From an uncultured Candidatus Saccharibacteria bacterium (GTDB lineage Bacteria > Patescibacteriota > Saccharimonadia > Saccharimonadales > AWTP1-31): a stretch of 64,000 nucleotides of DNA. The DNA lies in assembly GCA_964643545.1 (NCBI GenBank), contig CAZXTE010000003.1:52463-116462 (forward strand), given 5' to 3'. The translations under genes and the position numbers were made by a program. Below the pieces are notes generated by a model. The model was not told where the DNA came from and searched no databases. It worked only from the letters and a program-made list of their open reading frames with translations. Shown one piece after another: positions 5,019-12,226 of the stretch (positions are counted from its first letter, which is position 1; each line of letters starts with the position of its first letter).

Positions 5019-5513
5019 ATGAATCCGCTTATTGTTATCGGTCTATTAAGTTTAATACCAGTGGCGCTTATTATTCTTATGCGCGTCAATGCTGCAATGG
5101 TTTTTTTAAGTCTTTGCGTGGGCAGCATAACGGCACAATACCTAGGTGATGATACCGACCGTATCTTTAACTCGTTTCTGCCAAATAGCAGTGTCGCTAT
5201 TCAAGCAGCTGTCCGCATTGGTTTGTTCTTGTTGCCCGCATTTTTGACCATTATTTTCTTGCGGCGCAGCGTACATGGGCACAAATACGTATTTAATATT
5301 CTCCCAGCAGTATTAACGGGAGCGGTTACGGCCATATTAGTGGTGCCACTACTGCCGGACGGTACTAAGTATGCAATCACCACAAGCTCGCTTTGGACCA
5401 GCACTCAGCAATTCCAAAGTACCATTGTGGGGGCGGCTGTCCTGATTTGTTTGTTGCAGCTTTGGACAACGCACCCAACCGGACCGCGTGGTGGTCGTCT
5501 CCGACATAAGTAG
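5019..5513 (+). CDS. Hypothetical integral membrane protein
   Basis: 164 aa with 4-5 hydrophobic helices. No recognisable family. Confidence 0.6.
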   Translation: MNPLIVIGLLSLIPVALIILMRVNAAMVFLSLCVGSITAQYLGDDTDRIFNSFLPNSSVAIQAAVRIGLFLLPAFLTIIFLRRSVHGHKYVFNILPAVLTGAVTAILVVPLLPDGTKYAITTSSLWTSTQQFQSTIVGAAVLICLLQLWTTHPTGPRGGRLRHK

Positions 5514-7212
5514 GGTAGGACCCTACATTGACTTTTTGCCAAAAAAAGAGATAATGTAATCTGTTATTTCCCCGTATTGGACATACGGGCCCATAGCTCA
5601 GTAGGTTAGAGCAGTGGCCTTTTAAGCCACGTGTCCTGGGTTCGAATCCCAGTGGGCCCTCCAGTCTAGTAAAATCAGCCTCTTCGGGGGCTTTTTTGTT
5701 ACTACCGTATCTGTAAATAGCACTAATTTCTGGTATATAAACTTTTTTGTCTGGGGAAAGCTGTATTCCCGCAGGGAAAAGCATTTGTTTATATATAAGC
5801 ATCGTAGCCTTGTCTTGCTCCCACCATTTCGTGCTCAGGTTGTCCATGATGTCGAAAGCGTAGCCGATGAACTCACCGAAGTCTTTTTCATAGTCTTGGG
5901 CTTCTGAGGCGGCCTTTTCGGCCTCACCGATTTGTAGCTTTAGTGTGTCGATTTTGTCTTTGATGTCCTGCTTCATTTCAGGGTCTTGCTCAGACAGGTA
6001 GCTGTCCATAGCTGAGTCCTTTTTGTTTCTCAGTAGCTGCACCTTACCTAAGGCGATCCTAGCCCTCTCCATACGCTCAACCTCGTAAGACGACCACACT
6101 TTACGCATGTGGCTCTTGAGCTTTTCACGCTGCTCTTGCGTCATGAGTAGGTCTGAAAGTTCGGTTGTAATTTCTCCATGCACAGCTTCAATACGAGCCT
6201 CTAAGTTACAGGCACGACAGCGGTAGCGTTTGTAGGTGTGATTTTTATTTCTCCCACCTTGCGTCTGCGTTGCACTGGTAAAGCGAGGGTGTTTGAAGCC
6301 AGACAGTGCACACCGCAGACACTCCATCTCATTGGCAAGCGGGTAGTCAGGATTATCCTTGTTGATAGTAAAACGTTTGCCTTTATTCTTAGCTATCGCA
6401 ACCAGTATTTCGTGTTCCTCAGGTGTAATCATAGGTTTATGTAAGCCGTTCTTATTGACCTCAGGCCAATCGGCTAATTTCACGACACCGCAGAAGTAGG
6501 GATCGCACATAAGGTCTTTCCAGCGATACATATCTATTGTCTTGCCACCGACTGCTTTTGGTCCGTAATTCTTTGTACGAAGACCGTCGGCTGTTGCACG
6601 TTTAAGACCCTCACGAATATCACACTCTCCAGCAATCATGGCTTTGAAAGCGTTACGCATAGCTGACCAGTTAGGCTCATCGGGTAGATGTAAGCCAGGC
6701 ACATCAGAGGTTTTATAACCCGTATGAGGGTTGCTTGGGTAATAACCAGCACGAATTTTTGCCATCATCTTCTCAGGTGTCTTATGTATACGTTCGTTGT
6801 TGCTTTGCTCGGCACGGTACACGTCGATCAGCTCATCGAATACAGCACGATCATCATCGGGGTTAATGTCTGGACGGTTAGCGTGTACGAGACGAACACC
6901 GATTTTTTTGAACTCCATCTTCCACCAGTAATATTCTTCGATTGAACGCATGAAGCGGTCTACTTCATCTACAATCAGATACTTCACCGATTTGTAACGC
7001 TTGCAGTAATCAAGCATCTCAATCAAGTCTTTACGCTTTAGGTTCTTGCCCTTGCGACTTGAAACCGCCAAAGCCCAGACTTTTACGAGGTCTACGCCTA
7101 AAATGTCGGCTGCACGTTGTACATTTTCTTGTTGTGGGACTAGGTTGCCCTCGTTTGCTTGGCCTTGAGTTGATACACGGCATAGTGCGATTGCTTTTTC
7201 TTTTGTTGTCAT
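5377..7212 (-). CDS. Large serine recombinase (integrase); 3' part of the ORF is antisense to host tRNA-Lys and neighbouring sequence
   Basis: N-terminal resolvase catalytic domain (AIALCRVSTQGQ..., VDEVDRFMRS), a recombinase domain, a Zn-ribbon (CLRC...CRAC) and a coiled coil. SD GGAGAA precedes the ATG at 7212. The ORF stays open through 5587-5698 (tRNA plus terminator) down to 5377. Confidence 0.85.
   Translation of the reverse strand: MTTKEKAIALCRVSTQGQANEGNLVPQQENVQRAADILGVDLVKVWALAVSSRKGKNLKRKDLIEMLDYCKRYKSVKYLIVDEVDRFMRSIEEYYWWKMEFKKIGVRLVHANRPDINPDDDRAVFDELIDVYRAEQSNNERIHKTPEKMMAKIRAGYYPSNPHTGYKTSDVPGLHLPDEPNWSAMRNAFKAMIAGECDIREGLKRATADGLRTKNYGPKAVGGKTIDMYRWKDLMCDPYFCGVVKLADWPEVNKNGLHKPMITPEEHEILVAIAKNKGKRFTINKDNPDYPLANEMECLRCALSGFKHPRFTSATQTQGGRNKNHTYKRYRCRACNLEARIEAVHGEITTELSDLLMTQEQREKLKSHMRKVWSSYEVERMERARIALGKVQLLRNKKDSAMDSYLSEQDPEMKQDIKDKIDTLKLQIGEAEKAASEAQDYEKDFGEFIGYAFDIMDNLSTKWWEQDKATMLIYKQMLFPAGIQLSPDKKVYIPEISAIYRYGSNKKAPEEADFTRLEGPLGFEPRTRGLKGHCSNLLSYGPVCPIRGNNRLHYLFFWQKVNVGSYPTYVGDDHHAVRLGALSKAATNKSGQPPPQWYFGIAECWSKASLW
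5528..5555 (+). promoter_or_regulatory. Sigma70-like promoter for tRNA-Lys(UUU)
   Basis: TTGACT (5528-5533), a 16-nt spacer, then GATAAT (5550-5555), about 30 nt upstream of the tRNA 5' end. Confidence 0.5.
5587..5663 (+). tRNA. tRNA-Lys (anticodon UUU), CCA encoded
   Basis: Cloverleaf drawn by hand: acceptor GGGCCCA/TGGGCCC, anticodon arm GTGGC-CTTTTAA-GCCAC, T arm CTGGG-TTCGAAT-CCCAG. Confidence 0.93.
5677..5698 (+). terminator. Rho-independent terminator after tRNA-Lys(UUU)
   Basis: Hairpin AGCCTC-TTCG-GGGGCT followed by TTTTTT. Confidence 0.75.
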
Positions 7213-7481
7213 GGTATTCTCCTCTGTTAAGTATATATCTATGAAATATTATTAGCAATCTGTCCAATATTTGTGTTCGGTTCACTGGTCAGGTCTGCTT
7301 GCTTCTTTTTCTTGTATTGAGCGAGAAGAAAAGCAGCCAGCTCATCGAAAGCCCTTTCGTACTCCTTTTTAGTTGTTGGCTGCTGAGTTTCGCTCATGCC
7401 CTAATAATATGGCGAAATAGCCTAGAATCTTAGGGAGAATCACCCACTATAACAGGGGTGATAATGACGTTATTCGGGATA

Positions 7482-8246
7482 TTACTTCGGCAGCTTTTTA
7501 GGGCGTATTTGTTGGTTGCCGTAGGTATTCTGGAATAGCTGAAATGATAGTGGGAAAACCTTGGCGTTTAACCTGTAGCCACCCACTTGAGTAATAACTT
7601 TATTGTCTACACCACCACAAGCCTTACGCAATGCACTGATTGCGTCGTTAATGGCGTACTTTATTGGGTCGTCCTTATGGTCAATTTTTGCTATTACTTC
7701 CATCGTTGCTCTGTCGATCACATTTGGTGCGGCGAGAAACAATGCCTTGAATAGTCTCTTGTTTCTTCCTTTAAGATAGACAGCATGTCCATTGACTAAG
7801 CCACGACCTGAATTGAGGTCGTAATAAGCAAGATTTGGAACGGATTCATCTTCAATAGATTCCTCGTAGCCGTCGTAATTGGTTAGTCTTGCATCTGTTT
7901 TCTGTAGTGTTAGCAATAGCTCCTCAAAAGCGTAGCGGTTAATGATCGTTACCATGTAGTCGTCACCGCTACTGCCAGCAGCTACATACTTATAATCTTC
8001 CATGAACTTCAATTCGATTATCGCTGCACCCTCTGCCAACCACTTGAGGCACATGAGCCTACTCCATACAAAACTAGTGTTGTCTGGATTATTGTGCTCG
8101 TCGAAATCACCAACGAATACAGGGTGGTTGTCGGCGAGTCCACCAAGTTGATAGGTAACGGCGTACATCGTATCAAGCAAAGCCCTACAGACCGCTTCAC
8201 GCTTACCCTCGTCCATAGCTTCTAGTTGTTCAAGATATGTGCTCAT
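7482..8246 (-). CDS. Hypothetical protein with C-terminal OmpR/PhoB-type winged-helix DNA-binding domain
   Basis: C-terminus ...RLFKALFLAAPNVIDRATMEVI...AISALRKACGG...VITQVGGYRLN resembles Trans_reg_C. The N-terminal 150 aa are unassigned. Confidence 0.6.
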   Translation of the reverse strand: MSTYLEQLEAMDEGKREAVCRALLDTMYAVTYQLGGLADNHPVFVGDFDEHNNPDNTSFVWSRLMCLKWLAEGAAIIELKFMEDYKYVAAGSSGDDYMVTIINRYAFEELLLTLQKTDARLTNYDGYEESIEDESVPNLAYYDLNSGRGLVNGHAVYLKGRNKRLFKALFLAAPNVIDRATMEVIAKIDHKDDPIKYAINDAISALRKACGGVDNKVITQVGGYRLNAKVFPLSFQLFQNTYGNQQIRPKKLPK

Positions 8247-8312
8247 CTACAGCCATTTTACGTCAAATGTCATACTTATAAGAGAGGGTTACGCAAAAAC
8301 AAAGGAGCTATT

Positions 8313-8546
8313 ATGGCAATAAGAAAAGCCATCGGAAGACCAAATAAAATAAATCGTCGGGTAATGATAAAGTTGGCTGACGCAATACAACACAACGCCA
8401 ACATCACCGATGCGTGTAGGTACGCTGGCATTAGTCGCCAGACTTATTATTACTATTTGAGTAACGAAGCAGTATTCGCCGAAACAATGACTACGGCCAA
8501 AAATAATCAAGACAAGCTGGTGATGAGTTTTCTGACAGTCTGGTGA
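8313..8546 (+). CDS. Small helix-turn-helix protein (77 aa)
   Basis: AAGGAG SD lies 6 nt before ATG 8313. GRPNKI...ITDACRYAGISRQTYYYYL is a classic HTH of the resolvase or terminase-small-subunit N-terminal type. Confidence 0.65.
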   Translation: MAIRKAIGRPNKINRRVMIKLADAIQHNANITDACRYAGISRQTYYYYLSNEAVFAETMTTAKNNQDKLVMSFLTVW

Positions 8547-8726
8547 AAACACGCATGTTTTCGCTAGGTTTTTATAAAATTTGATGTCAGTAAAGTCGGA
8601 TTCTGGGAAAAAAATTTGGGAGCAGTTGCTCTCTGTTCTAGTTAAGTAAAAGATGAACGACTTGATTAACCCTCTAGGACGCTCCTTGGGGTCGTAGGAC
8701 AGGTTTTAGAGCACAATATGGGTAAT

Positions 8727-9164
8727 TTATTGCTCTTGTTTGAGCCATTGCTCAAAGGCTTCAACAGTCGGGAATATGTGATCAAAAATATTGTAAAGCG
8801 TTTCGGTTTTTTCTAGCTTGCCGATAGCAATACAACGCTTGCCAAGTCCGTAGGCAACGCCAGCTTCAATGTGTGCAGCAATGCCAGCGGGAAACACTAG
8901 TAAAAAGGTATCGGCTTCACGCTCGGCTTTCATGTCAATATCAAATATCTTTTCTATAAAAGGGTGGTCTTGGGGCAGGTCTTCAAGCTGTGCCATGAAT
9001 ACTTCTGGTTCGCCGTCCATCTTTAGTTCGATTATCTCGCCCTTGTAGTCGTTTTCTAGAAAGCAGTAAGCAGTCTTGCCGTTTGCTCGTACTAGGTCAA
9101 GTACGGGCTTAATATTGTCTTTGTTTCGCCAGCGTCCAGCAATAAAGTAATCTGTTTTAGCCAT
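8727..9164 (-). CDS. Nucleoside 2-deoxyribosyltransferase-like protein
   Basis: N-terminal YFIAGRW and C-terminal FPAGIAAHIEAGVAYGLGKRCIAIG match the NDT-family Rossmann-like pattern (hYhAGP ... E.G.A.alGKP). Start taken at MAKTDYF. Confidence 0.6.
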   Translation of the reverse strand: MAKTDYFIAGRWRNKDNIKPVLDLVRANGKTAYCFLENDYKGEIIELKMDGEPEVFMAQLEDLPQDHPFIEKIFDIDMKAEREADTFLLVFPAGIAAHIEAGVAYGLGKRCIAIGKLEKTETLYNIFDHIFPTVEAFEQWLKQEQ

Positions 9165-9252
9165 AGGTAGATTGTAGCAGAAACGAGACTTGTAAAGCGG
9201 TGTTAAAGCTATAATGATTGACATGTATATATCTAACAAAATCAGGTACTAA

Positions 9253-10491
9253 ATGAGTGTTGCCGAAAAAAAGTGGCAAGAGCAGAACAAAAGCTGGGAA
9301 AAGCGTTACTCTGTTTTAGCGGAAGAAACAATGGTCGACGAGGCTTTAATTAAGATGAGCCGTGAACAACTTATTGCATATTTCGGAGAAGAATGGCTAA
9401 AGGATGCATACTCTAGGCAAAAGGCGTACTCACCAGGAGACCCTACTGGGATTGTCGGCGTGATAACTAATCCTATGGACAATCATGGCGTTGAGGTTGT
9501 AGAGCTGGCTAAGTACCTGAGTGCAGTAGAGGGTCAAGATAACTTTTCGGAAATCATTACAAAATTAAAAAGTACGTCTGACTATGAAGCTATAAGACTT
9601 AATCTAGCTGTGGCATATAGACTGATGCACTCTGACTGGGAAAATGTGTATGTTGAGCCAGCGGTTGGAGATGTTGAGGGTACACTCTACGGTAAAAAAT
9701 ATGTAGTTGAGTGTTCAGTGATAATGCCACCAAACCCATCAAGTAAATATACTAATGAGATATTTAGAAGTGTCTACAAGACACTAAAGCAAAATAAGAT
9801 ACCAGTATGGATTCACCTTAAATTCAATGTGGATTTCAAGACAATACCGCTAAAAAATGTTATTGAAGCCGTCAAAGAACTTAACAAACGATTTTTGGTT
9901 GAAAACAAACCAGTTGAAACACAAACGAAAGAATTTAGTATGACTGCTTGTTTGCTCGATGGTCGTGTTAAGCAAATTCTAGAAGAACAACGAAGCAAAG
10001 AAGATGGTATTACAGAAATCGGTTTTCGTATTGCCACTGCTAAGCCTAAAATACCAGGTGATGTTCATAGTGTTGACCCAGACGATCCTAACCAAATTGA
10101 AGACGGCACAATAACGTTTGGCGGACTGAGCGATTATATAAAAGATAAAACCACCAGCGAGCGGCTAAGAACTAAGATTCGAGATAAAAAAGAACAAACG
10201 TCTGACTTGCCGAGAGGTACAAAAAGATTATTCGTATTTATGGCAAATGGAAAAGTTGAAGATGATGACTGGCGGGAATTGGGCCAGGTAGTTAGGAAAT
10301 CCACTAGCCTCAGCGACAATATAGACGCTGTTTTGTTTATAGATAGAAGAAGGCAAGAATTTGAAGGTAAAATACGGTTTCCGTCAGGCCAAGTACACAT
10401 ATTTACAAAGCCATATCGTCTAACAGCCCTTGAGACTTCGTTTAGAAAAATGAAAGCATTTGAAGAGAGTGACTGGATTAACGAACCTTAG
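9253..10491 (+). CDS. Hypothetical protein (412 aa), no recognisable domain
   Basis: Long uninterrupted ORF, divergent from the NDT-like gene across an 88-bp gap, with coding-like composition. Confidence 0.7.
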   Translation: MSVAEKKWQEQNKSWEKRYSVLAEETMVDEALIKMSREQLIAYFGEEWLKDAYSRQKAYSPGDPTGIVGVITNPMDNHGVEVVELAKYLSAVEGQDNFSEIITKLKSTSDYEAIRLNLAVAYRLMHSDWENVYVEPAVGDVEGTLYGKKYVVECSVIMPPNPSSKYTNEIFRSVYKTLKQNKIPVWIHLKFNVDFKTIPLKNVIEAVKELNKRFLVENKPVETQTKEFSMTACLLDGRVKQILEEQRSKEDGITEIGFRIATAKPKIPGDVHSVDPDDPNQIEDGTITFGGLSDYIKDKTTSERLRTKIRDKKEQTSDLPRGTKRLFVFMANGKVEDDDWRELGQVVRKSTSLSDNIDAVLFIDRRRQEFEGKIRFPSGQVHIFTKPYRLTALETSFRKMKAFEESDWINEP

Positions 10492-10518
10492 CTAACACAG
10501 TATCTATATGTATAACTG

Positions 10519-10794
10519 CTACAGGGAATATAATTCTTTTCTACGGCGATTACTAAGCTGATACTGCTTGAACCTGTTATCTAATAGCTCACGCCAACGT
10601 ATCAGTTCGTCAACCAAATATATAAATTTGTTCCTTGGTCGACCTCCAAACAAAATGCCTCAGCAACGCTGGGGTTTTTTGTTTGGTTCGTTCGCCCGGG
10701 AAGGGATGCAGGATGTAGATTTTGCGTTGCAGAAAATGATGCTAGTCTTCTGTTCGGTCAGCCCAAGCCGGGTGTAGAAACTAGCTTCGAGCAT
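10519..10794 (-). pseudogene. Possible disrupted small HTH-like gene (one in-frame TGA at 10660-10662)
   Basis: From ATG 10794 the frame reads MLEASFYTRLGLTEQ...PQRC-TGA-GILFGGRPRNKFIYLVDELIRWRELLD... to TAG 10519. It is a single frame with one opal codon. Confidence 0.3.
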
Positions 10795-10830
10795 AGCCGC
10801 AGGCGTGTAACAAGCAGGGGCTCACAAATA

Positions 10831-10859
10831 TTGACAGTGAGTACTATTAGTCGTATAAT
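10831..10859 (+). promoter_or_regulatory. Perfect consensus sigma70 promoter
   Basis: TTGACA (10831-10836), exactly 17 nt of spacer, then TATAAT (10854-10859). The ATG of the downstream ORF is 10 nt after the -10 element. Confidence 0.75.
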
Positions 10860-10868
10860 ATCTATATT

Positions 10869-11396
10869 ATGGATGATATTCCTGTTTCGGAGCAACTGAG
10901 ATTAGTACCCCCAGAATATGACCATGCTTTGCATGAATTGGACTCTTTAGTAGCGTCTTTCCTGGATCGGTTTCCAGATGATATTGAGTATTATCGCAAT
11001 GGTTGTGGTTTGTCGTTACGCTCTGAGGGTATGGCGCCTAATACGTACTACGTTGTGTCTAAATCTCTACCGTTTCCGTACCCAGAAGCCCCCGACTGGA
11101 GCACTATAAAGGCTACGCTAGGGCATACGACAGAGCATGGCAAGAATTCCGGATATACGGTTCATTATGAGATGGACGGAGGGCTGCTAACTGCCACGAG
11201 CGCCGCATACGACAATAACGAGTTTCTAGACGAAGACTGGCCTTCACCACAAGAACTTTCTGAGGCAGACATCCGAAGAATCATCGATGAATTGTCGGCT
11301 GCTGAACCAGTCCACCCCGATGCAATTGAGCAGGGAAAAATTGGAAAAATCGCCAGAGTAAGTTCATTTATCAAGCGGGTGCTTTTTCGCAAATAA
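10869..11396 (+). CDS. Hypothetical acidic protein (175 aa)
   Basis: ORF immediately downstream of the consensus promoter. About 30 D/E against about 16 K/R by hand count. No recognisable family. Confidence 0.65.
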   Translation: MDDIPVSEQLRLVPPEYDHALHELDSLVASFLDRFPDDIEYYRNGCGLSLRSEGMAPNTYYVVSKSLPFPYPEAPDWSTIKATLGHTTEHGKNSGYTVHYEMDGGLLTATSAAYDNNEFLDEDWPSPQELSEADIRRIIDELSAAEPVHPDAIEQGKIGKIARVSSFIKRVLFRK

Positions 11397-11422
11397 GCTT
11401 GCAGCATTTTGTAGATACGTTT

Positions 11423-12226
11423 ATGGCACAAGCAAACCAAGATAACCCGTTACGACAAGATGGCGGTTTACCACCTCTGTTTTTGGCGGAAATTGATCCA
11501 CGTTTAGATTGGGAGGGTAAGTCGGTCGAACGAATCAGTGACCCAGTGGCGAGGCTTGTAGTGCTTTGGACGATAATAGGTCAATACGACAATGTTGCCC
11601 GGATGAACGGAGGGGGGCCAGACGGCGAGCCAACCGTGGCTGATGCACAAAGGTACCAGTTGATGTCAACGTGGGCTCACGAAAGTCGCCGAGTAATGCC
11701 GTGTCAACGTCTTGAGCCGACTGAGCGGTCCGCACAGCAAAGGGTGTTAGACAAACTTGGGGAAACCCCCCTTGGAGCATATGTAGAGGTTGTTGAAATT
11801 AGAGATTGGATGCCCGAAATGATGCACCCAGACGTGCGTTTTGATCTGCTCTATAGAATTTGGGCGAACTCTACTGATTTGAATGAAACGGATAGCTTCA
11901 GAGACATTATCGCCAGAGATATGATTAGCGAGACTTTGCCCGGAGGTGAGGGGTACTGCGATAATCCTGAACGACTTCGAAGATACAATGTACTATCCAG
12001 AGTAGACCCAAAATTTCAGCAAGTAGTAGACGGTTATCTTGCTAGCTGTATGGCGAGCGGAGATCTAGAGCAACATGGTTATTACGACGACAAACCTATG
12101 TCGATAACAGAAGTTTGCCGCATTGCAGTCGAAAGAAGATATACCGAATTAGCGCAGTACATGCTGGATGCGGGCGTACTAGAGCTAGATGACGAACATG
12201 TGCTACTAACGTTACTGGCTGATTGA
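11423..12226 (+). CDS. Hypothetical protein (267 aa)
   Basis: ORF 27 nt after the previous stop (ATG 11423; the ORF track uses TTG 11399). No recognisable family. Confidence 0.65.
   Translation: MAQANQDNPLRQDGGLPPLFLAEIDPRLDWEGKSVERISDPVARLVVLWTIIGQYDNVARMNGGGPDGEPTVADAQRYQLMSTWAHESRRVMPCQRLEPTERSAQQRVLDKLGETPLGAYVEVVEIRDWMPEMMHPDVRFDLLYRIWANSTDLNETDSFRDIIARDMISETLPGGEGYCDNPERLRRYNVLSRVDPKFQQVVDGYLASCMASGDLEQHGYYDDKPMSITEVCRIAVERRYTELAQYMLDAGVLELDDEHVLLTLLAD

Follow-up and report, generated by a model that had tools for sequence, protein, structure and literature searches.

An integrase gene of the large serine recombinase type that appears to contain its own attachment site, at a tRNA-Lys gene of a Candidatus Saccharibacteria bacterium

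Integrases of the SSV type usually target tRNA genes, and the attP sites of canonical large serine recombinases (LSRs) adjoin the integrase gene (int) and do not lie inside it, their targets being mostly protein-coding genes. In mycobacteriophages with integration-dependent immunity, attP is located in the repressor gene, and the loss of a degradation tag was reportedly shown experimentally by Broussard et al. 2013. A change in the activity of IntP, the integrase of the Myxococcus phage Mx8, is said to have been found by Tojo 1996 and Magrini 1999. In Mx8, attP lies in the 3′ end of int, and the prophage protein carries a new C-terminus, which is reported to modify its activity and not to abolish it (PMC6070905; PMC4383910). 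The "suicidal" integrases of the SSV type (SSV1, pTN3, pT26-2) are tyrosine recombinases and were described as exclusive to archaea (PMC8371274). According to the Islander paper (PMC4383910), serine integrases were not known to use tRNA or transfer-messenger RNA (tmRNA) genes, together t(m)RNA genes, and according to the TIGER paper (PMC7192596) such use was unreported or unproven, apart from 14 of 297 computational predictions. Here we analyzed a putative mobile element at a tRNA-Lys(UUU) gene of an uncultured Candidatus Saccharibacteria bacterium. It is located in a stretch of 64,000 nucleotides (nt) of contig CAZXTE010000003.1 (positions 52,463 to 116,462), which is called the window in the following. 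The integrase open reading frame (ORF) of this element, with its 611 codons, is very probably the attL (prophage-state) version of an LSR gene which carries attP within its own coding sequence, about 41 codons ahead of the natural stop codon.

A first-pass annotation, made from the letters of the window and a list of its ORFs, had described a serine recombinase ORF running in antisense across tRNA-Lys(UUU), the tRNA promoter and into the neighboring gene. The ORF list, ARAGORN and Rfam bear this out. The antisense strand of the tRNA is translated as int residues ~517-542 (EGPLGFEPRTRGLKGHCSNLLSYGP), and the host-encoded end of the ORF runs antisense to the tRNA, the tRNA promoter, the terminator of the upstream gene and the final 137 nt of the coding sequence (CDS) 5019..5513. 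The LSR-type N-terminus, zinc ribbon and coiled coil named in the same annotation were also recovered. Pfam family Resolvase (PF00239) matches residues 7-155 (E = 5.4e-12), residues 220-362 match the recombinase and zinc-ribbon region of the A118 integrase (phmmer; 4kis, 6dnw), and the PHROG integrase family phrog_95 matches the protein as well. Residue S14 in the motif RVST and the cysteines C298, C301, C332, and C335 are invariant across 34 homologues. An exact database look-up of the window protein gave no record.

For structure prediction with AlphaFold2, the homologue P0008, which is 77% identical to the window protein, was modeled from an alignment of 29 sequences. The model had a mean predicted local distance difference test (pLDDT) score of 83 and contained the LSR domains and the coiled coil, with long helices at residues 360-457. 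They are followed by a linker at residues 505-524, which is encoded by the terminator and core region and was disordered and of low confidence, and by a C-terminal helix at residues 526-558 (pLDDT ~80-86). The top Foldseek matches of this model were LSR-DNA complexes (9dxf, 9dxh, 9iu2, 4kis, 9rah; E down to 1.6e-14), and its matches include Bxb1, phiC31, and A118/LI. Judged by its sequence and by the predicted fold of its homologue, the product of the window ORF is an LSR.

The border between host and element was located by comparison with a related locus, L001, whose integrase (P0001) shares 98% amino acid (aa) identity with that of the window. The two loci are 90% identical at the nucleotide level over 5586..8663, whereas their host flanks are only ~75% identical. 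Of the 77 tRNA positions 12 differ, and there are compensating changes, also in the acceptor stem, but from the base after CCA onward they are ~99% identical, and the host/element boundary is therefore the tRNA's 3′ end. When genome contigs were scanned with the 3′-terminal 53 nt of this tRNA, they yielded the empty site that the first-pass annotation had suggested to look for in related genomes. It is present in L008 (Candidatus Saccharibacteria, DAISWP010000001.1), which has the same tRNA and upstream flank and lacks the element. Upstream flank and tRNA share 95.5% nucleotide identity with the window, the 3′ 53 nt of the tRNA being identical, and the tRNA of L008 is succeeded by its own terminator and then by a homologue of window ORF 11399..12226. 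Since this strain has the tRNA without the element, the tRNA is a host gene and not cargo. The 6-bp block CCTCCA, composed of the last two acceptor-stem bases, the discriminator base and CCA, is the only identity common to attL and attR, and on this comparison the crossover is placed inside it. Integration at the 3′ part of tRNA-Lys, as deduced from these alignments, leaves the tRNA gene intact. The junction within the 3′ end of int, as claimed before, was thus located, its core covering codons 517-519 and a tail exon being found at the other end of the element. Instead of the last ~150-180 codons that had been assigned to the host, only the final 93 (519-611) are host-encoded.

At the right end, the elements of L001 and of a further locus, L003, align with the window only up to 10656-10662. 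Read on the int strand, attR has the same order at all three loci (window, L001, L003), namely a host-specific terminator hairpin, TGGAGG, and a conserved P arm (TCGACCAAGGAAC...). The block of identity between the att sites comprises 6 bp in the window element and 6-9 bp in its relatives. No long direct repeats were found at the element flanks, where only the 6-bp core recurs, and the 3′ 25-mer of the tRNA had no second match with up to 3 mismatches within the island. The absence of repeats of the tRNA 3′ end is expected for a serine integrase, and a tyrosine-type att duplication is ruled out. The far end of the element had previously been placed at ~12.3 kb; the attR core puts it at ~10.65 kb. 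A boundary near 11,400, inferred from L008, was rejected, as both the right ends of the L001 and L003 elements and the conserved P arm terminate at 10643-10648. The 758-bp segment 10649-11406, which separates attR from the next shared host gene, is missing in L008 and is taken as a difference between strains. It holds the displaced terminator and ORF 10869..11396 (175 aa), which is preceded by a promoter with 12 of 12 consensus positions at 10831-10859 and whose product had no family match.

The int 3′ ends were compared across the family. A database search returned more than 500 homologues of the window int, and nearly all of the best 120 cover ~89% of the query, through the tRNA-antisense stretch. 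Their C-termini form two classes. One reads ...EGPxGLEPxTPCLKGRCSNQLSYGP... and continues into unrelated tails, and the other, in another frame, reads ...GGPGGTRTLDTLLKRQVL* and stops at the TAA of the D-loop. Past the 5′ end of the tRNA the homologues diverge completely. The shared stretch is, by its sequence, a reading into conserved tRNA genes and not protein homology. In the first-pass annotation, homology through this stretch was to speak against an integration junction there. Homology does extend through it, yet it is uninformative on this point because the homologues themselves are integrated at conserved tRNA genes. The long tail in the window results from the fact that just one of the three antisense frames of its tRNA is open.

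From 94 related loci and the window locus, 72 distinct int 3′ ends were obtained. A tRNA gene is overlapped by 52 of them; six are contiguous "free" forms, four run off a contig end, and ten are of other kinds, among which those of L089 and L091 abut a tmRNA gene (Rfam). The tRNA genes concerned are Lys-UUU (22), Lys-CUU (15), Val-GAC (6), Arg-UCG (3), Arg-GCG (3), Gly-GCC (2), and Glu-CUC (1). As it recurs in 52 of 72 distinct ends, the read-through is not due to chance. The sequences place the split-int architecture in a large LSR family as a common trait, with the 3′ ends of tRNA-Lys, Val, Arg, Gly, and Glu genes and of tmRNA genes as targets. The host-encoded additions, 93 codons in the window, range from 4 to more than 100 aa in the relatives, depending on tRNA sequence and frame.

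The P arm beyond the core encodes the peptide ...VDQGTNLY(I/T)LVDELIRWRELLDNRFKQYQLSNRRKKELYSL* on the int strand, and in L001 and L003 the joining of attL and attR places this tail in the int frame. More than 30 loci have a tail-like exon upstream of int and on its strand. Excision was simulated in silico at the first 6 nt of the reverse complement of each tRNA; matches of TGGAGG(G) inside the RWR codons are spurious cores and were excluded by a test for an in-frame tail. In this way, an in-frame fusion of int and tail was reconstructed in 26 loci, which represent five tRNA isoacceptor types and elements of 3.6-8.4 kb. The tail exon is in frame in 26 of 28 loci, one third being expected by chance, and out of frame only in the window and in L066. 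Among the differing exon codons, 137 were synonymous and 71 non-synonymous in the int frame, compared to 37/188 and 19/200 in the other two frames. By this measure the tail exon is under coding selection. An alignment of 32 of these conserved tails of ~41 aa (14-90% identity) revealed a motif E..RWR, in which E and R are invariant, while at least 90% of the sequences have the W.

Contiguous full-length integrases are also found in databases. P0008 (559 aa) ends with ...MEVDQGTNLYTLVDELIRWRSLLDNRFKQYRLNMGRQKELYS, and further examples are P0026, P0066, P0069, P0074, P0092, P0107, and P0111. Two contigs, L092 and L072, carry a contiguous full-length int without a tRNA and have overlapping ends (30 nt and 127 nt, respectively), in the way circular molecules would assemble. 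Together with the 26 in-frame reconstructions, these forms support the earlier proposal that the integrated and excised elements encode integrases with different C-termini.

In public data, the exon at attR figures among the orphan "hypothetical proteins", with 39-64 aa (P0121-P0128). For some of these, an in-frame ATG arises from the base preceding the core TGGAGG, which is why they start exactly at M-EVDQ.... In general, the core provides xTG directly before GAG, and the attR exon often opens with an in-frame ATG, TTG, or GTG. Given these potential start codons, the tail might be translated separately in the integrated state. A profile search with the tail only, which covered just 35 candidates and gives no count of full-length forms, returned 14 small orphan ORFs. 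In the exon of the window, one T is missing from a T run near 10619 (TATATTTGG vs. TATATTTTGG in relatives), and the exon is otherwise intact to the shared stop codon. Because the 1-nt deletion shifts the exon frame, the excised form of the window Int would have only 13 extra residues past the junction and end with ...LEVDQGTNLYIWLTN* at 531 aa and not at 559 aa, without the RWR helix.

Integration at the tRNA 3′ end separates the tRNA from its native terminator. The stretch of int translated as NKKAPEEA had been read as the terminator hairpin of the tRNA on host DNA. A hairpin followed by a T-run is present there, but it belongs to the element. In the family, a hairpin with at least four T residues is located inside int, 28-41 nt past the tRNA 3′ end, in 49 of the 52 distinct elements, as opposed to 25 of 624 control windows drawn from antisense int sequence. 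The stems vary (GCCTC/GGGGC, CCGTC/GACGG, GACACC/GGTGTC, AGAGCC/GGCTCT, and others), and such widely differing, compensating stems indicate selection on the hairpin structure. The protein motif K-K-x-P-E-G is largely the translation of this terminator. At the position that matches the displaced native terminator of the window, L001 and L003 have different, host-specific hairpins. The element is predicted to bring a replacement terminator for the tRNA whose native terminator gets displaced. The coordinates of all features are listed in Table 1.

Table 1. Features of the putative element and its integration site in the window, and junctions reconstructed in silico.
Feature	Position	Strand	Remark
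Chimeric integrated-form (attL-spanning) int ORF	5377..7212	-	611 codons (611 aa)
Element-encoded part of int	5664..7212	-	Codons 1-517; resolvase and recombinase domains, zinc ribbon, coiled coil; ends ...NKKAPEEADFTR(L)
Host-encoded tail of chimeric ORF	5377..5657	-	Codons 519-611
Promoter-like site of tRNA	5528..5555	+	TTGACT/16/GATAAT; antisense to ORF tail
Host tRNA-Lys(UUU) gene	5587..5663	+	Intact after integration; ARAGORN and Rfam
attL core CCTCCA	5658..5663	.	TGGAGG on int strand; codons 517-519
Integrated element (4,985 bp)	5664..10648	.	Between attL and attR cores
Element-borne intrinsic tRNA terminator (predicted)	5677..5697	+	Hairpin and T-run; antisense of int codons NKKAPEEA
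52-aa ORF	7239..7397	-	
254-aa ORF	7482..8246	-	
Helix-turn-helix (HTH) protein gene	8226..8546	+	
Nucleoside deoxyribosyltransferase-like protein gene	8727..9239	-	phrog_12607, E = 6.6e-15
412-aa ORF	9253..10491	+	No family match
Detached C-terminal int exon	10519..10642	-	..VDQGTNLY/LVDELIRWRELLDNRFKQYQLSNRRRKELYSL*; out of frame in window
attR core CCTCCA	10643..10648	.	Right-end homology of L001 and L003 ends; flanks beyond are host-specific
Displaced native tRNA-Lys terminator (host B′ arm)	10657..10683	+	
Predicted circular junction of window element			...GCTGATTTTACTAGAC-TGGAGG-TCGACCAAGGAACAAATTT...; in silico; predicted junction read GATTTTACTAGACTGGAGGTCGACCAAGG
Reconstructed empty site of window strain			...CCCAGTGGGCCCTCCA-AACAAAATGCCTCAGC...; in silico

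According to the sequence comparison, the 4,985-bp element is integrated where the host tRNA-Lys(UUU) gene ends, at its final 6 bp (CCTCCA), and the gene survives intact. The native tRNA trailer and terminator are shifted by 5 kb to attR, and the predicted terminator located antisense in int replaces them. At the same time, integration severs int after codon 518, leaves the conserved tail with its predicted helix and E..RWR motif stranded at attR, and fuses the truncated gene to antisense tRNA and host DNA, which in the window adds 93 arbitrary codons. Excision would rejoin int. In the mechanism that we propose, the activity, direction or stability of the enzyme would presumably differ between free and integrated elements. 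The full-length Int would carry out integration, and the tail-less or chimeric form, Int′, would be attenuated or altered, thereby stabilizing the integrated state. Since the host-encoded additions are unselected, the relevant change would be the loss of the RWR helix. The likeness to the integration-dependent gene switches of phages that the first-pass annotation had noted holds for the architecture, and for the activity it is a conjecture. Generalized to the family, the proposal reads that a large and hitherto undescribed LSR clade of Saccharibacteria and other uncultured bacteria is specialized on t(m)RNA 3′ ends and swaps its C-terminal RWR helix as a state switch, with the full-length Int, produced by the free circle alone, performing integration and the tail-less enzyme differing in directionality, activity or stability. 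We advance this generalization tentatively, as one that is possible and falls short of being probable.

Several points weigh against the proposal. Excision of the window element is deduced from sequence comparison, and an effect of the tail on activity is likewise a deduction. The tail-less forms retain all canonical LSR domains and could be fully active. As L008 also lacks 10649-11406, the attB of the exact window strain is reconstructed and not observed, and a search of the 6-bp core for dyad symmetry did not place the crossover dinucleotide. Finally, the exon of the window is frameshifted, so that this copy may be inactive.

In an alternative explanation, the split would be a passive by-product. 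attP would happen to lie within the 3′ end of int, the tail would be dispensable, both proteins would act alike, and the long antisense ORF would be accidental, owing to the single antisense frame of a tRNA that is open. The position of the catalytic, DNA-binding and coiled-coil domains, all ahead of the junction, is in line with this explanation, and the added sequence of 4 to more than 100 aa is clearly not selected. We nevertheless regard it as doubtful, since the tail itself is conserved over 14-90% identity with E and R invariant and W nearly so, its exon displays an excess of synonymous changes in the int frame and stays in frame in 26 of 28 loci, and no family member has a stop codon ahead of the junction.

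The frameshift, in turn, might indicate that the window copy is a decaying, immobilized remnant with a pseudogene-like int, whose read-through has no present function. Besides the 1-nt deletion in the tail exon, the lack of recognizable conjugation, replication or capsid genes would fit such a remnant. The 518 element-encoded codons are intact, however, and 98% (aa) and 90% (nt) identical to P0001. This near-identity, despite host flanks that are only ~75% identical, indicates recent transfer under purifying selection. Moreover, the exon is preserved as far as the shared stop codon except at this one position, which is in a T run. We therefore consider a remnant unlikely; the window copy may have been crippled recently, or the missing T may be due to a sequencing error in the homopolymer.

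That tRNA-Lys is itself cargo of the element, similar to phage-borne tRNAs, with the true junction upstream of the tRNA, would explain why database homology of int runs exactly to the tRNA 5′ end and then stops, but it is practically untenable and already contradicted, as L008 keeps the tRNA and its upstream flank without the element, the tRNA differs at 12 of 77 positions between window and L001 next to element DNA that is ~99% identical, attR has the core and a host-type terminator, and the two overlapping-end contigs with full-length int contain no tRNA.

With respect to the remaining genes, a conserved ORF of 52-57 aa is located directly upstream of int (the 52-aa ORF in Table 1); it had no family match in Pfam or PHROGs. 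Searches of the element cargo genes against these two databases gave almost no matches, and no genes for conjugation, replication or capsids were recognized in the element. The 412-aa gene is also present in L003, and L011 contains a gene pair of comparable size (415 and 167 aa) at the equivalent position. In the L001 element (6900-11553, 4,653 bp; also in L002), a seryl-tRNA synthetase gene (L001 7061-8359) is situated between the core genes and the tail exon, where the window has other cargo. LOOT RNA (Rfam RF03000) was found above the gathering threshold in or beside related elements at L016 10937-11045, L027 2759-2888, and L034 825-944, with further loci at L074 3066-3186, L087 4460-4584, and L089 582-694; it had no match within the window.

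Three further observations concern the attachment sites of relatives. In L011 (10001-17741, JGI Ga0604924_0000485), a single tRNA-Lys(UUU) carries a tandem of two related elements. At their inner junction, TGGAGG is flanked by the distal element's P′ arm and the proximal element's P arm, so that the distal int (P0007) ends with LEVHRPLSL*. This arrangement implies integration beside an occupied site and recognition mainly via the tRNA half-site, which is unusual for serine integrases. In L004 and L006, from other Saccharibacteria genomes, the last 18-20 nt of tRNA-Lys (…CCCAGTGGGCCCTCCA) occur once more ~170 nt downstream of the complete gene, preceded by a T-arm-like stretch. Either a different type of integration, of which this repeat would be the relic, or an insertion resembling an intron could account for it; tRNA genes of Patescibacteria have been described to contain group I introns (PMC13011429). 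Among viral contigs, a scan detected only two relatives, both distant and both at tRNA-Gly. They are the IMG/VR contigs L009 and L010 (38 and 45 kb, classed as viral), whose integrases are 33-34% identical and abut tRNA-Gly(GCC). For L010, a 7.4-kb element could be reconstructed in frame, and its int may belong to an island inside the contig rather than being the integrase of the phage itself.

The architecture accounts for recurrent oddities in the annotation of these genomes, among them over-long integrase ORFs that overlap tRNA genes and orphan "hypothetical proteins" of 40-60 aa at the ends of islands. t(m)RNA genes are regarded as targets of tyrosine integrases, whereas here a whole LSR family uses at least seven tRNA anticodon types and tmRNA. 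The family would supply genome engineering with natural integrases for highly conserved tRNA sites. Should the activity depend on the tail, LSR directionality could be addressed in a new way, and if the RWR helix indeed acts as a switch, it would represent a second, self-encoded layer of directionality control of serine integrases beside the recombination directionality factors, on which their excision depends.

An incomplete literature search, which does not prove absence, yielded no description of an LSR with attP inside int or of tRNA-targeting LSRs in Patescibacteria. The family has the domain order and fold of canonical LSRs (A118/LI, Bxb1, phiC31, SPbeta SprA) and shares with them the short attP/attB identity without long repeats, but in the canonical enzymes attP lies beside int, whereas here it very probably lies inside int and the targets are t(m)RNA genes. 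Like Islander-type elements, the window element is integrated at the 3′ part of a t(m)RNA gene that stays intact; Islander-type elements typically leave a displaced tRNA fragment of at least 15 nt at the distal end, in contrast to the mere 6-bp core found here. Integration-dependent immunity of mycobacteriophages is similar in that integration truncates a phage gene at attP and alters the properties of its product; there, however, the repressor is cut, the integrase is a tyrosine recombinase, and the effect is experimental.

The systems closest in architecture are those of Mx8 and the SSV type, which the window element resembles without being a member of either, as its sequence identifies a serine and not a tyrosine recombinase. 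As in Mx8, the sequences place attP within the coding sequence of int, and integration creates a recombinant gene with a new 3′ end. Mx8 is, however, a 50-kb Myxococcus phage with a tyrosine recombinase, whereas the present elements of Saccharibacteria and relatives comprise 3.6-8.4 kb and encode an LSR, and the part lost here would be a conserved helix of ~41 aa, with a presumably altered activity. With the SSV type it shares a recombination site inside the integrase gene, which is split on integration and restored on excision. The split inactivates the SSV gene, whereas here the catalytic and DNA-binding domains stay together and only the tail is detached. Beside the archaeal tyrosine type and the bacterial C-terminal variant of Mx8, the family described here very probably represents a serine-recombinase version of self-splitting integrase genes in bacteria.

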